A stretch of 64,000 bases of DNA from Escherichia coli (GTDB lineage: Bacteria > Pseudomonadota > Gammaproteobacteria > Enterobacterales > Enterobacteriaceae), in the NCBI RefSeq assembly GCF_030013205.1, contig NZ_CP122648.1. One strand, given 5' to 3'. Positions within the stretch are counted from its first letter, which is position 1, and each line of letters starts with the position of its first letter. The notes below the pieces were generated by a model, which made no database searches, was not told the origin of the DNA, and saw only the letters and a program-made list of their open reading frames with translations. Positions 27,295 through 54,270 of this stretch are shown one piece after another. The translations under genes and the position numbers were made by a program.

Positions 27295-29994
27295 ATGCGT
27301 AAATATCCTTTAAGTTTACTGAAGGATAAAAATATTGTGACTTTTTTTGATTTCTGGGGAAAAACCCGACGCGGCGAGAAAGACGGGGGCGACGACTATC
27401 ACCTTCTTTGCTGGCATTCGCTGGATGTAGCCGCGATGGGCTATTTAATGGTTAAAAGCAATTGCTTCGGGCTGGTTGACTATTTTCGTCAACTAGGTTT
27501 CGCTGATACGGAGCAGGCAGCACAATTTTTCGCCTGGCTATTGTGCTGGCACGATACTGGAAAATTTGCCCGCTCTTTTCAGCAACTTTACCTGCACCCA
27601 CAACTCAAGGTTCCGGAAGGCGCAAGAAAGAATTACGAAAAGATCTCTCATTCAACGCTGGGCTACTGGCTGTGGCATCATTATTTAAGTGAATACGAAG
27701 AATTGCTTCCTTCATCTTCACTCTCTCCGCGCAAACTTAAACGGGTGATGGAGATGTGGATGCCCATGACTACCGGGCATCATGGTCGGCCCCCTGACCG
27801 TATTGATGAACTGGATAATTTTCTGCCTGAAGACAAAGCTGCCGCACGAGATTTTCTCCTTGAAATCAAGGTACTGTTTCCGCTCATCGAGATCCCCGCA
27901 TTCTGGGATGATGACGAGGGCATTGAACTTTTAAAACAACTTTCCTGGTATATCTCTGCAACCGTCGTACTCGCAGACTGGACGGGATCGTCAACGCGGT
28001 TTTTTCCACGCGTTGCACAGGCAATGGATATTAAAGATTACTGGCAGAAGGCTTTAGTTCAGGCTCAAAACGCCTTAACCGTCTTTCCTCCAAAAGCACA
28101 AACCGCGCCTTTCACCGGAATTAATACACTGTTTCCTTTTATTGAGCACCCGACACCGTTACAGCAAAAGGTGCTGGATCTGGATATCAGCCAGCCAGGA
28201 CCGCAGTTATTTATTCTGGAAGATGTGACTGGCGCAGGTAAAACAGAAGCGGCGCTTATCCTGGCGCACAGGTTGATGGCTGCGAGGAAAGCACAGGGTT
28301 TGTTTTTTGGCCTGCCAACAATGGCAACGGCCAATGCCATGTACGATCGGTTGGTCAAAACCTGGCTTGCTTTCTATTCTCCAGAATCTCGCCCCAGCCT
28401 GGTGCTGGCACACAGTGCCCGCACATTAATGGATCGCTTTAATGAATCACTCTGGTCCGGTGATTTAGTCGGGTCAGAAGAACCGGATGAACAAACGTTC
28501 AGTCAGGGATGTGCGGCCTGGTTTGCCGACAGTAACAAGAAGGCGTTGCTGGCTGAAATTGGCGTCGGCACTTTGGATCAGGCGATGATGGCGGTGATGC
28601 CGTTCAAACATAATAATCTGCGGCTTCTGGGGCTGAGTAATAAAATCCTGCTGGCTGATGAGATCCACGCCTGTGACGCTTACATGTCATGCATTCTTGA
28701 AGGGCTGATCGAGCGGCAGGCGCGTGGCGGAAACAGCGTCATTTTGCTTTCTGCCACGTTATCTCAACAGCAGCGCGACAAACTCGTTGCTGCCTTTGCG
28801 CGTGGTACAGAGGGCCAGCAAGAAGCTCCGTTCCTGGAAAAGGATGATTACCCCTGGCTGACGCACGTTACGAAATCCGATGTGCATTCACACCGGGTAG
28901 CGACGCGCAAAGACGTTGAGCGTAGCGTGAGCGTGGGTTGGCTTCATAGCGAACAAGAATGTATTGCGCGTATCGAATCGGCAGTAAGTCAGGGGAAATG
29001 CATCGCCTGGATCCGGAATTCTGTCGATGACGCTATTAAGGTTTATCGTCAGTTGCTTGCCCGCGGCGTCATTCCTGCTTCCAGCCTTTCTCTGTTTCAT
29101 AGCCGCTTTGCTTTTAGCGATCGCCAGCGAATTGAAACGGAAACGCTGGCACGCTTCGGTAAAAGTTGTAGTTTACAGAGATCATCGCAACTCATTGTTT
29201 TTACACAAGTAATTGAACAAAGTGTGGATATTGACCTGGACGAAATGATATCCGACCTGGCCCCTGTTGATTTGCTGATCCAACGGGCGGGGCGATTACA
29301 GCGGCATATCCGCGATATTAATGGTCAGTTAAAGCGTGACGGAAAAGACGAGCGTTCCCCTCCTGAATTGCTGATTCTGGCCCCCGTCTGGGACGACGCT
29401 CCAGGTGACGAATGGTTCGGCAGTGCCATGCGTAACAGTGCATATGTCTATCCCGATCATGGACGAATCTGGCTGACGCAGCGTGTACTGCGTGAGCAAG
29501 GCGCGATTCAAATGCCACACGCAGCCCGCCTTCTTATTGAATCAGTCTACGGTGAGGACGTGGTAATGCCGGAAGGATTTGCCCGCAGCGAGCAGGAACA
29601 AGTGGGCAAATATTACTGCGATCGCGCAATGGCTAAAAAGTTTGTGCTGAACTTCAGGCCCGGCTATGCCGCCAATATCAACGATTACCTCCCGGAAAAA
29701 CTGTCGACACGTCTGGCTGAGGAGTCTGTTTCCCTGTGGCTGTCTACCTGTATTGCCGGTGTGGTGAAGCCTTATGCCAACGGTGCTCACGCATGGGAAA
29801 TGAGCGTTGTCAGAGTGCGTCGAAGCTGGTGGAAAAAACATCGGGATGAGTTTTCTTTACTGGAAGGGGATGCGTTCAGGCAGTGGTGCATTGAACAGCG
29901 GCAAGAGCCGGAGATGGCAAACGTGATTTTAGTCACCGATGACGAAAGTTGCGGGTATTCGGCTATGGAAGGATTGACTGGCAAGGTTGGTTGA
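27295..29994 (+). CDS. cas3: CRISPR-associated nuclease/helicase Cas3 (type I-E)
   Basis: 899-aa ORF; HD nuclease motifs (HLLCWHSLD, WHDTGKF), helicase Walker A (VTGAGKTEAA) and DExH-like box (LADEIHACD). Confidence 0.9.
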   Translation: MRKYPLSLLKDKNIVTFFDFWGKTRRGEKDGGDDYHLLCWHSLDVAAMGYLMVKSNCFGLVDYFRQLGFADTEQAAQFFAWLLCWHDTGKFARSFQQLYLHPQLKVPEGARKNYEKISHSTLGYWLWHHYLSEYEELLPSSSLSPRKLKRVMEMWMPMTTGHHGRPPDRIDELDNFLPEDKAAARDFLLEIKVLFPLIEIPAFWDDDEGIELLKQLSWYISATVVLADWTGSSTRFFPRVAQAMDIKDYWQKALVQAQNALTVFPPKAQTAPFTGINTLFPFIEHPTPLQQKVLDLDISQPGPQLFILEDVTGAGKTEAALILAHRLMAARKAQGLFFGLPTMATANAMYDRLVKTWLAFYSPESRPSLVLAHSARTLMDRFNESLWSGDLVGSEEPDEQTFSQGCAAWFADSNKKALLAEIGVGTLDQAMMAVMPFKHNNLRLLGLSNKILLADEIHACDAYMSCILEGLIERQARGGNSVILLSATLSQQQRDKLVAAFARGTEGQQEAPFLEKDDYPWLTHVTKSDVHSHRVATRKDVERSVSVGWLHSEQECIARIESAVSQGKCIAWIRNSVDDAIKVYRQLLARGVIPASSLSLFHSRFAFSDRQRIETETLARFGKSCSLQRSSQLIVFTQVIEQSVDIDLDEMISDLAPVDLLIQRAGRLQRHIRDINGQLKRDGKDERSPPELLILAPVWDDAPGDEWFGSAMRNSAYVYPDHGRIWLTQRVLREQGAIQMPHAARLLIESVYGEDVVMPEGFARSEQEQVGKYYCDRAMAKKFVLNFRPGYAANINDYLPEKLSTRLAEESVSLWLSTCIAGVVKPYANGAHAWEMSVVRVRRSWWKKHRDEFSLLEGDAFRQWCIEQRQEPEMANVILVTDDESCGYSAMEGLTGKVG

Positions 29995-35952: not shown

Positions 35953-36408
35953 GTGTTCCCCGCGCCAGCGGGGATAAACCGCATAATCCCGGCTGGAAAC
36001 ATTGCGGGGGTAAGTGTTCCCCGCGCCAGCGGGGATAAACCGCGACCGATCCCGCTGTTGCAACTTTTATTGAGGTGTTCCCCGCGCCAGCGGGGATAAA
36101 CCGGTGATGAGGAAAAGCTAATAGAATGGCGACGCGTGTTCCCCGCGCCAGCGGGGATAAACCGGTCCACGGTTCGACGCCTACCGCCGCAGCTATGTGT
36201 TCCCCGCGCCAGCGGGGATAAACCGTTGTCGGGCTTGTTCGGCGCGGGTTGTTAACTGTGTTCCCCGCGCCAGCGGGGATAAACCGCCAGTCGAAGATCT
36301 GGACGCGTGGGGAAAAGCGTGTTCCCCGCGTCAGCGGGGATAAACCGGACGCACTGGATGCGATGATGGATATCACTTAGAATTCCCCGCCCCTGCGGTA
36401 GAACTCCC
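35953..36408 (+). CRISPR. type I-E CRISPR array, 7 repeats plus a degenerate terminal repeat, 7 spacers
   Basis: 29-bp repeats GTGTTCCCCGCGCCAGCGGGGATAAACCG at 35953, 36014, 36075, 36136, 36197, 36258, 36319 (the last with gcgTcag); 32-bp spacers between them; degenerate final unit gaattccccgcccctgcggtagaactccc at 36380. Confidence 0.95.
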
Positions 36409-50192: not shown

Positions 50193-50429
50193 ATGATTTG
50201 TCCACGTTGTGCTGATGAACAGATTGAAGTGATGGCGAAATCGCCGGTAAAAGATGTCTGGACAGTCTATCAGTGCCAGCATTGCCTCTATACCTGGCGC
50301 GATACCGAACCGCTTCGCCGCACCAGCCGCGAACATTACCCGGAAGCGTTTCGTATGACGCAGAAAGACATTGATGACGCGCCAATGGTGCCGAGCATTC
50401 CGCCGCTGCTGGCGGAAGGTAAGCGTTAA
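50193..50429 (+). CDS. ecdD: small zinc-ribbon subunit D of the phenolic acid decarboxylase
   Basis: 78-aa ORF with CPRC ... CQHC motif; third gene of the UbiX/UbiD cluster. Confidence 0.7.
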   Translation: MICPRCADEQIEVMAKSPVKDVWTVYQCQHCLYTWRDTEPLRRTSREHYPEAFRMTQKDIDDAPMVPSIPPLLAEGKR

Positions 50430-50437
50430 TAAAAAGT

Positions 50438-50465
50438 GCCGGGTAGTGGCTTTGCTTTACCCGGC
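50438..50465. terminator. hairpin between convergent ecdD and pphB
   Basis: gccgggta / tacccggc 8-bp stem with 12-nt loop. Confidence 0.4.
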
Positions 50466-50718
50466 CTCATTACTTTATTTTATAAAATGACAGCCGCCCG
50501 CTTTTCGGCGATCCGGTATCAATATAAATCTGGTTTGCGAACGTCTGAATGTTATCAAACATCATATGTCCAAATATAAAATAATCAGCGCCGTTTATTT
50601 GTTGTAACTCGCCATTAAGCGATTTCTGCACACGATCAACAGGCCAGAGTAATTCTCTCTCCGCTATTTCTTTGCCAAAGAGATATTCACTCCCCGGATA
50701 ATCGGTAATGACTCCAAC

Positions 50719-51222
50719 TTACTGATAGTGTTTTATGTTCAGATAATGCCCGATGACCTTGTCATGCAGCTCCACCGATTTTGAGAACGACAGTGACTTC
50801 CGTCCCAGCCTTGCCAGATGTTGTCTCAGATTCAGGTTATGCCGCTCAATGCGCTGAGTATAACGCTTGCTGATAACGTGCAGCTTTCCCTTCAGGCGTG
50901 ATTCATACAGCGGCCAGCCATCCGTCATCCATACCACGACCTCAAAGGCCGACAGCAGGCTCAGAAGACGCTCCAGTGTGGCCAGAGTGCGTTCACCGAA
51001 GACGTGCGCCACAACCGTCCTCCGCATCCTGTCATACGCGTAAAACAGCCAGCGCTGACGTGATTTAGCACCGACGTAGCCCCACTGTTCGTCCATTTCA
51101 GCGCAGACAATCACATCACTGCCCGGTTGTATGCGCGAGGTTACCGACTGCGGCCTGAGTTTTTTAAGTGGCGGAAAATCGTGTTGAGGCCAACGCCAAT
51201 AATGCGTGCACTGGCGCGACAT
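50719..51222 (-). CDS. insB: IS1 transposase InsB reading frame
   Basis: 167-aa ORF overlapping insA; the InsAB' transposase is made by -1 frameshifting. Confidence 0.9.
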
Positions 51223-51416
51223 CCGACGCCATTCATGGCCATATCAATGATTTTCTGGTGCGTACCGGGCTGAGAGGCGGCGTAAGTGAACTGTAGTTGC
51301 CATGTTTTACGGCAGTGAGAGCAGAGATAGCGCTGATGTCCGGCGGTGCTTTTGCCGTTACGCACCACCCCGTCAGTAGCTGAACAGGAGGGACAGCTGA
51401 TAGAAACAGAAGCCAC
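51141..51416 (-). CDS. insA: IS1 protein InsA
   Basis: 91-aa [45 protein letters not shown]. Confidence 0.95.
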
Positions 51417-51708
51417 TGGAGCACCTCAAAAACACCATCATACACTAAATCAGTAAGTTGGCAGCATCACCGTCGGCTTCAGGGCAAAAAGAGAGTTGAT
51501 GTAAGCGGGATTGTAATAATTGATAGTCACCATGAATATCACCAACGGCCCATATATGGCGATAGTGATGGGCATTGATTTTTTGATAGCGTGTAGATGG
51601 CATGGTTTTACCCTGTAAAATAAGCTTTCCTATTATACAGGGTATTTTTATTTGATTCGTCAGTTGTCGTTAATATTCCCGATAGCAAAAGACTATCGGG
51701 AATTGTTA

Positions 51709-54270
51709 TTACACCAGACTCTTCAAGCGATAAATCCATTCCAGCGCCTGACGCGGGGTGAGTGAATCCGGGTCCAGGTTTTCCAGTGCCTCGACCGCAG
51801 GCGACGTTTCTTCTGGCACTGACAGCAAAGACATTTGCGTACCATCCACTTGCGTAGCGGCGGCGTTCGGCGAAATGCTTTCCAGCTCACGCAGTTTTTG
51901 CCGTGCGCGCTTAATAACCTCTTTTGGCACGCCCGCCAGAGCAGCAACCGCCAGGCCGTAGCTTTTGCTCGCCGCGCCATCCTGCACGCTGTGCATAAAG
52001 GCAATGGTGTCGCCGTGCTCCAGTGCATCAAGATGCACGTTGGCGACGCCTTCCATTTTCTCCGGTAACTGGGTTAGCTCGAAATAGTGGGTGGCAAACA
52101 ACGTCAACGCTTTAATCTTATTCGCCAGATTTTCCGCGCACGCCCACGCCAGCGACAGACCATCGTAAGTGGAGGTTCCGCGCCCAATCTCATCCATCAG
52201 CACCAGACTGTACTCGGTGGCGTTATGTAAAATATTGGCGGTTTCGGTCATCTCCACCATAAAGGTTGAACGCCCGGATGCCAGATCATCCGCTGCCCCT
52301 ACGCGGGTAAAGATGCGATCGATAGGTCCAATCTCGACTTTTTGTGCCGGTACATAGCTGCCGATGTAGGCCATCAGCGCAATCAGTGCGGTCTGGCGCA
52401 TATAGGTACTTTTACCGCCCATATTCGGACCGGTAATGATCAACATGCGACGCTGCGGCGACAGGTTCAGCGGGTTGGCGATAAATGGCTCGTTCAGTAC
52501 CTGTTCAACCACCGGATGGCGGCCTTCGGTGATGCGAATACCCGGTTTATCAATGAAGGTCGGGCAGGTGTAGTTCAGGGTATAGGCCCGCTCCGCCAGG
52601 TTAACCAGCACATCAAGTTCTGCCAGTGCGCTTGCGCTCTGTTGCAACGCTTCCAGATGCGGCAACAGCAGGTCGAACAGCTCTTCATAAAGCTGTTTTT
52701 CCAGTGCCAGTGCTTTGCCTTTTGAGGTGAGAACTTTATCTTCGTACTCTTTTAGCTCTGGAATAATGTAGCGTTCGGCGTTTTTCAGCGTCTGGCGGCG
52801 CATGTAGTTAATCGGTGCCAGATGGCTTTGTCCACGGCTGATCTGAATGTAATAACCATGCACCGCGTTAAATCCGACTTTCAGCGTGTCCAGGCCGGTA
52901 CGTTCACGCTCGCGGACTTCCAGACGCTCCAGATAATCGGTCGCGCCGTCAGCCAGCGCGCGCCACTCATCCAGCTCTTCGTTATAGCCCGATGCGATAA
53001 CACCACCGTCGCGCACCAGTACCGGCGGTGTGTCGATAATGGCCCGCTCCAGCAGATCGCGCAGTTCGGCAAACTCACCCATCTTCTCACGCAGCGCCTG
53101 TACCGGTGCACTATTGACAGTTTCTAACTGCGCGCGCAGCTCCGGCAGTTGCTGGAAAGCGTGACGCATACGGGCCAGATCGCGTGGGCGAGCAGTTCGT
53201 AAAGCCAGACGCGCCAGAATACGTTCCAGGTCGCCGACCTGACGCAGTACCGGCTGCAGCTCGGCGGTGAAATCCTGCAATGCGCCAATAGTTTGCTGGC
53301 GCTCAAGCAAGACGCGGGTATCGCGCACTGGCATATGCAGCCAGCGTTTCAGCATACGGCTGCCCATCGGCGTGACGGTGCAGTCGAGCACAGAAGCCAG
53401 CGTATTTTCCGCACCACCCGCCAGGTTCTGGGTGATTTCCAGATTACGACGCGTCGCGGCATCCATAATGATGCTGTCCTGCTCACGTTCCATGGTGATG
53501 GAACGAATATGCGGCAGAGTCGTACGTTGGGTATCTTTCGCATACTGCAACAGACAACCGGCAGCACAAAGTCCGCGCGGCGCGTTCTCGACGCCAAAAC
53601 CGACCAGATCGCGGGTCCCAAATTGCAGATTCAACTGCTGGCGCGCGGTGTCGATTTCAAACTCCCACAGCGGGCGACGGCGCAGGCCGCGACGGCCTTC
53701 AATTAACGACATTTCAGCAAAATCTTCTGCATACAGCAGTTCCGCAGGATTAGTGCGTTGCAGTTCTGCCGCCATCGTTTCCCGGTCAGCCGGTTCGCTC
53801 AGGCGAAAACGACCGGAACTGATATCCAGCGTCGCGTAGCCGAAACCTTTACTGTCCTGCCAGATAGCCGCCAGCAGGTTATCCTGACGCTCCTGCAACA
53901 GCGCTTCATCGCTGATGGTGCCCGGCGTAACGATACGCACAACTTTGCGCTCAACCGGACCTTTGCTGGTCGCTGGATCGCCAATTTGTTCGCAGATGGC
54001 AACGGACTCGCCCTGATTCACCAGTTTGGCGAGGTAGTTTTCCACCGCATGGTAGGGGATCCCCGCCATTGGGATCGGCTCTCCCGCCGAAGCACCGCGT
54101 TTGGTCAGTGAAATATCCAGCAGTTGCGACGCGCGTTTTGCGTCGTCATAAAACAGTTCATAAAAATCACCCATCCGGTAAAACAGCAGGATCTCGGGAT
54201 GCTGGGCTTTCAGCTTGAGATATTGCTGCATCATGGGCGTATGGGCATCGAAATTTTCTATTGCACTCAT
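51709..54270 (-). CDS. mutS: DNA mismatch repair protein MutS
   Basis: 853-aa ORF with Walker [10 protein letters not shown] and canonical MutS domains. Confidence 0.95.

Follow-up and report, generated by a model that had tools for sequence, protein, structure and literature searches.

Probable two-step decay of the phosphatase gene pphB by a single IS1 element in an Escherichia coli lineage: insertion followed by adjacent deletion

The stretch of Escherichia coli DNA considered here (64,000 nucleotides, hereafter referred to as the window) matches the genome of ETEC4079 (NZ_CP122643.1, 1087999-1151998; pig faeces, Belgium) at all positions bar 1 base. The sole differing base, at window position 28362, lies in cas3 and is C in the window vs T in NZ_CP122643.1; the cas3 protein accessions of ETEC4079 and ETEC1748, another genome used for comparison, are not the same. 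The mutS-rpoS region of E. coli is polymorphic, and the interval in the window is of the short MarR/ecdBCD type, with the gene order rpoS, a MarR-family regulator, ecdB, ecdC and ecdD (hydroxyarylic acid decarboxylase), pphB', IS1, 'pphB and mutS. Both mutS, located upstream on the same strand (51709..54270), and the convergent ecdD are untouched. A 14-nt inverted repeat, 93% complementary and with an 8-nt loop, is present between the mutS stop and the pphB start (51609-51644) and may be the terminator of mutS.

Several features in other parts of the window were noted on comparison with the related genomes. The CRISPR array at 9979-10251 has a length of 273 bp vs 396 bp in ETEC1748, and the difference of ~122 bp probably represents two repeat-spacer units; a second CRISPR array, at 35953-36347, has equal annotated coordinates and length in ETEC4079 and ETEC1748. 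The stretch 122-10250 shows 38 mismatches and 14 gap openings to ETEC1748 in ~10 kb vs only 15 mismatches in the next 40 kb, a divergence that could stem from a recombined patch or from sequencing errors. In the region of 7803-8830, the annotations of ETEC4079 and ETEC1748 alike show ygcG as a pseudogene interrupted by a stop, next to a hypothetical gene that carries a frameshift.

Elements of the IS1 type are recognised by a length of ~768 bp, imperfect terminal inverted repeats of ~23 bp (GGTRATG...CCAACTTAYTGAT) and a transposase formed from insA and insB' joined at an A6C motif by a -1 frameshift. The window carries one complete element of exactly 768 bp with all these characters (Table 1). 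The IS1 terminus consensus has only two matches in the entire 64-kb window, with 0 mismatches each and 0 matches expected by chance; these are the two ends of the element, IRL being on the 51471 side and IRR on the 50704 side. The A6C motif of IS1 is the site of the programmed -1 frameshift between insA and insB' that gives the fused transposase, and the transposase CDS is annotated in RefSeq as the corresponding joined feature, 50719..51416. The terminal repeats of this copy, its insA and insB' frames and its A6C motif are all intact, and it looks functional as far as its sequence can be judged. The number of IS1-matching places per chromosome ranges from 19 to 22 among the sibling genomes, a variation which suggests that IS1 has recently been active in them.

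The element is flanked by two pieces of pphB. The 44 residues translated from the 5' piece (MPSTRY...GDIHG...CPEAD) adjoin IRL, and the 77 residues of the 3' piece (DYPGSEY...FGHMMF...YKIK, followed by the stop) adjoin IRR. An earlier note on this DNA, made from the sequence alone, had placed IS1 between exactly abutting pieces of 44 and 77 codons, which is borne out by the translations and the terminus matches; the IS1 end that it called the left one, beside the first 44 codons, is left in the orientation of the gene, corresponding to IRL on the high-coordinate side of the window. The internal loss that it described is real, but its count of about 98 codons has to be corrected to exactly 97 (codons 45-141, 291 bp) together with one copy of the target-site duplication. 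The GDxxDRG and GNHE motifs that it had found missing are indeed absent, as GDNIDRG (residue 50) and GNHE (residue 76) fall within the lost codons.

Full-length members of the PphB/PrpB protein-serine/threonine phosphatases have ~218 aa with the GDxHG, GDxxDRG, GNHE and GH motifs, and are identified by the NCBIfam equivalog NF007425 at a cut-off of 332 bits and by Pfam Metallophos (PF00149). The scores of the two window fragments, 85.1 and 151.5 bits, place them outside this family. Judged by these translations, pphB in the window is a pseudogene and is predicted to provide no functional phosphatase member. Two partial phosphatase pseudogene pieces around the IS1 transposase are already annotated in RefSeq, and they serve as a reminder for annotation, since the two 'partial phosphatase' features form a single pseudogene.

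Table 1. Features of the IS1-interrupted pphB locus (coordinates are those of the window)
Feature	Coordinates	Strand	Basis
pphB 3' fragment, codons 142-218 + stop, 77 aa, GH motif; pseudogene remnant	50470..50703	-	translation; NF007425 positions 142-218, 151.5 bits; RefSeq 'incomplete; missing N-terminus'
CGGATAATC, 9 bp adjoining the IRR tip at the deletion junction; putative second strand-transfer target	50695..50703	.	sequence; junction in one piece only in ETEC4079
IS1, complete, 768 bp, transposase genes on minus strand	50704..51471	-	RefSeq 'IS1 family transposase, programmed frameshift'
IRR, right terminal inverted repeat GGTAATGACTCCAACTTACTGAT; deletion extends from IRR end	50704..50726	+	terminus match
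insB' frame, 167 aa as listed	50719..51222	-	ORF list; NF033558 positions 76-199, 148 bits
insA, 91 aa	51141..51416	-	ORF list; NF033558 IS1 transposase positions 1-81; NF050000 zinc-binding domain
A6C slippery motif TTAAAAAACTC, intact	51157..51167	-	read from sequence
IRL, left terminal inverted repeat GGTGATGCTGCCAACTTACTGAT; original junction kept at IRL	51449..51471	-	terminus match
pphB 5' fragment, codons 1-44, GDIHG motif; pseudogene remnant	51472..51603	-	translation; NF007425 positions 1-44, 85.1 bits; RefSeq 'incomplete; missing C-terminus'
GTCGGCTTC, surviving copy of the original 9-bp target-site duplication	51472..51480	.	both IS1 sides in ETEC1748; once in ETEC4068 empty site

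The distribution of this arrangement was examined by a megablast search of the window positions 50300..51800 against 5,426 complete E. coli genomes. A match in one piece at 100% was obtained only with ETEC4079. Six close relatives (ETEC1748, 4067, 4069, 4070, 4071 and K_EC180) were matched in two pieces over a span of 1,801 vs 1,501 bases, and these siblings carry the identical IS1 at the identical site as a simple insertion with a perfect 9-bp duplication of GTCGGCTTC. In ETEC1748, where all of pphB is kept, the element is bounded by GTCGGCTTC at positions 2196-2204 and 2973-2981 of its locus sequence (L001). In ETEC4068 the locus is uninterrupted: pphB is intact and encodes its full 218 aa, and GTCGGCTTC is present in one copy. 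The ancestral allele was rebuilt from ETEC1748 by removal of the IS1 and one copy of the duplication, and was found to be identical to ETEC4068 over 1,023 bp. It comprises an ORF of 657 bp coding for 218 aa, with GDIHG at residue 21, GDNIDRG at 50, GNHE at 76, DYPGSEY at 142 and GH at 186; the product scores 463 bits against NF007425 over positions 1-218, with the Pfam Metallophos domain at residues 16-188. Alignment of the window to this intact allele (ETEC4068 or rebuilt), a check that the earlier note had proposed, gives codons 45-141 as the deleted interval.

Three states of the locus, and the bounds of the deletion, can thus be read in public genomes. The window has 0 differences from ETEC1748 over 4.5 kb outside the deleted stretch and is ~99.9% identical to it across the full 64 kb; the IS1 copies of the two at this site show 0/768 differences. 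The order of the states would be empty site, simple insertion and deletion, because the duplication is made only by insertion and a deletion is irreversible. The element in the window has CGGATAATC as its left and GTCGGCTTC as its right flank, which form no direct repeat, as the earlier note had observed, and the 9-bp target duplication of IS1 that is absent here is found around the same copy in ETEC1748. Because that copy has GTCGGCTTC on both sides in ETEC1748, the missing duplication is secondary and is no evidence against assignment of the element to IS1.

Compared to ETEC1748, the window lacks locus positions 1905-2204 (L001), a stretch of 300 bp that consists of 291 bp of pphB and the IRR-side copy of the duplication and directly abuts the IRR tip. 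In the simple-insertion precursor, CGGATAATC continues into TGCATGTGCG... at the point where it meets the element in the window. TC is the last dinucleotide both of the left flank that was kept and of the stretch that was lost, which makes the end point of the deletion ambiguous by 2 nt. The right (IRL) junction is unchanged in the window and was matched in one piece in all seven genomes of the lineage. A look-up of the product of the 44 pphB codons read into IRL gave 13 further public contigs; of the loci read, that of the complete K_EC180 chromosome spans the IS1 and those of two draft contigs end at it, and none of them adds evidence for the deletion. The left junction, formed by the deletion itself, was found in one piece in 1/5,426 complete genomes, that of ETEC4079, and because it is unique to this genome the deletion appears to be recent and derived.

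Two simpler accounts of the missing segment were considered and rejected. The deleted 300-bp segment was detected in 5,393/5,426 genomes, nearly always once; matches covering 80% or more of it were obtained in 5,381. A naturally short pphB allele of ~121 aa, which the earlier note had named as an observation that would overturn its reading, was not seen among these genomes; the central segment is present in nearly all of them, and close relatives possess the intact gene of the identical allele. Relocation of the segment within the strain, the other such observation, was also rejected, as the full-length matches to the segment with identities of 96% and above included none elsewhere in the ETEC4079 assembly, short partial copies being outside the matches listed.

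The 300-bp difference rests on one assembly, and the window, at 1 base in 64,000 from it, is possibly not an independent confirmation. An assembly artefact or a minority variant, with the strain truly having the simple insertion and the 300 bp being lost in assembly or polishing, would be in keeping with the occurrence of the deletion in only one complete assembly, and with the look-up of the 53-aa ORF product specific to the deleted state (50470..50631), which gave no record in the other public assemblies. It is nevertheless considered highly improbable: the missing stretch is unique sequence with no repeat to collapse, the break falls precisely at the IS1 tip with both flanks free of errors over the 4.5 kb compared, and a like IRR-side deletion has arisen independently from the same site in two other genomes read, with five more sharing its right junction and match length, as described below.

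The pphB region has received IS1 elements in several other genomes. In 2015-01-466, an IS1 is located at another position in the pphB region with its own duplication, CAAACATCA, and in Eco_70239 just downstream of pphB with the duplication TGGTTACTC. PRO_A-1443-6M-A and fS25a have an IS1A-type copy that agrees with the window element in site, junction and orientation; in PRO_A-1443-6M-A, the one read of the pair, it is bounded by a GTCGGTTTC duplication (L006, 2025-2033 and 2802-2810). A third IS1 variant has the same junction in seven genomes (HMDUC-17, O25:H16 F5505-C1, ATCC 43886, E2528-C1, 203740, NCCP 13717 and LR883012), two of which, HMDUC-17 and F5505-C1, were read (IS1 at 2503-3270 of L004 and L007, shared junction from 3271). 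In these two, an IRR-side deletion of 4,236 bp, as measured against the reference locus L017, runs from the same IS1 site into otnC and takes the rest of pphB, ygbI, ltnD, otnK and most of otnC; the remaining five share the right junction and the match length. In strain 1506, an IS1A-type copy within pphB (L008, 2503-3270) has unmatched flanks and no duplication, with 216 bp of the gene missing, and represents another independent IS1-associated deletion in pphB.

Three lineages therefore have an identically oriented IS1 at the same pphB site (GTCGGCTTC or GTCGGTTTC; window 51472-51480). Because the three IS1 variants differ from each other by 23-51/768 nt and the flanks by ~3%, independent insertions are the simplest reading of these sequences. 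It is conceivable, if rather doubtful at present, that GTCGGYTTC at pphB codons 42-44 is a true orientation-specific IS1 hotspot that has been struck by three variants, with the subsequent deletions extending on the IRR side, in the direction that leads away from mutS. Such a hotspot could arise from a local resemblance to an IS1 end or from selection against damage to mutS. The empty target AATAAGTAAGTCGGCTTC (L011, 1483-1500, ancestral sequence) matches the inner IS1 end AATCAGTAAGTTGGCAGC at 14/18 positions, the 18-mer having been chosen after the fact; this score was reached at only 2 positions in ~127 kb scanned on both strands, a weak indication with a post hoc probe, and when 27-nt probes of both IS1 ends were used on both strands, the pphB site was not among the top matches in the region. 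A literature search retrieved nothing specific to this locus. Both pphA and pphB are named among the genes near hotspots in a published survey of where mobile elements insert (bioRxiv 10.1101/527788).

The observations on the window are probably best accounted for by a two-step decay of pphB by one IS1, in which an insertion was followed by an adjacent deletion through intramolecular transposition. In the first step, an IS1 would have inserted into pphB codons 42-44 in the ancestor of the pig ETEC lineage, duplicating the 9-bp target GTCGGCTTC and inactivating the gene. In the second, on the branch leading to ETEC4079, the transposase (InsAB') would have joined the resident IRR end to CGGATAATC, 291 bp away on the same molecule. 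Such intramolecular replicative transposition in the deletion orientation would leave the IS1 in place and the IRL junction untouched, and would remove everything from the IRR tip up to the new target, namely pphB codons 45-141 and the IRR-side copy of the duplication. The involvement of the transposase and a single deletion step are presumed here from the form of the junctions. An adjacent deletion is favoured because the IS is kept, one junction is kept, the deletion starts at the other tip (with the ambiguity of 2 nt) and the duplication copy of that side is lost; the six siblings supply the precursor, in which this IS occupies that very position with both flanks intact and the one junction conserved.

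The earlier note had proposed either an adjacent deletion or recombination between two IS1 copies in place of a simple insertion. The siblings have the precursor thus predicted, from which the window differs only by the 300-bp loss at the IRR tip, and the sequence alone is accommodated by both mechanisms. In the second of these, another IS1 would have inserted in direct orientation at CGGATAATC, 291 bp away, and RecA-dependent recombination would have removed one IS1 and the intervening segment. This route yields exactly the sequence observed, with one IS1 and one copy of each duplication; moreover, several IS1 copies are present per genome, in numbers that differ from sibling to sibling, and pphB is repeatedly struck by IS1 and is listed near insertion hotspots (bioRxiv 10.1101/527788). 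It is, however, regarded as unlikely, as it needs two events where one is sufficient, and its intermediate, an IS1 at the CGGATAATC junction with the segment retained, was found in none of the 5,426 genomes. Of the two routes, intramolecular transposition leading to an adjacent deletion is the more parsimonious, but IS1-IS1 recombination would give the identical sequence.

Two further alternatives, taken together, are given only a very small probability. The first is a deletion independent of the IS, by slipped mispairing or illegitimate recombination, which would need an end point within 0-2 nt of the IS1 tip by chance. The 2-nt microhomology (TC) at the two deletion ends agrees with such an origin, but it is no more than chance would give; that the end point should fall at the IS tip by coincidence is very unlikely, and an end point exactly at the tip recurs in the O25:H16 group. 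The second is the reverse history, with IS1 first at CGGATAATC followed by an IRL-side deletion up to GTCGGCTTC, to which the repeated use of GTCGGYTTC as an IS1 target lends some weight. Its required intermediate was not seen, and it would have to recreate by chance the exact junction of the siblings, which have an IS1 identical at 768/768 positions in a genome 99.9% identical.

Adjacent deletion by IS1 has been known since the 1970s, and the phenomenon and its basis in intramolecular transposition were reportedly treated by Reif and Saedler in 1975 and by Turlan and Chandler in 1995. The classical adjacent deletions in gal and lac share with the event proposed here the retention of the IS, one unchanged junction, the start at the IS1 tip, the loss of the duplication copy on the deleted side and the mismatched flanks. 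Nothing material separates the two, the present event being small (300 bp), natural and not laboratory-selected, and located in an inactive gene. In the E. coli long-term evolution experiment (LTEE), the two-step course of IS insertion and later adjacent deletion explains 14/14 of the examined IS-associated deletions without duplications (PMC11708052). The order and the diagnostic are the same, with an IS present earlier (here in the siblings) and a later flanking deletion without a duplication; however, the LTEE events involve IS150 (IS3 family) and large deletions, and the present one IS1 and 300 bp. Recombination between two direct IS copies has the same end product, a single IS with mismatched flanks, and differs in needing a second insertion. 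Reports on the variable mutS-rpoS interval and the pphA-pphB hotspots (bioRxiv 10.1101/527788) cover the locus of the window, pphB being disrupted by IS1 in many lineages, but deal with the presence or absence of gene blocks and with hotspot statistics and not with this particular deletion.

The type of event is thus already known, of the textbook kind and well understood, and it lies in a public genome that is already annotated. The event itself is probably inconsequential: because the non-essential pphB was already split at codon 44 and mutS is untouched, no phenotypic consequence of the second step is expected, and this step is an instance of pseudogene erosion. The locus is useful as a clean natural example, with all three states in public genomes, of an insertion sequence that kills a gene and then erodes it, and it explains how an IS copy can come to be without a target-site duplication. 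The deletion also provides a lineage marker that distinguishes ETEC4079 from its siblings. The repeated use of one 9-bp site by different IS1 variants may be of interest to those studying the target choice of insertion sequences or the mutS-rpoS region and, if the hotspot is true, this is the spot at which erosion of the mutS-rpoS interval could be predicted to begin.
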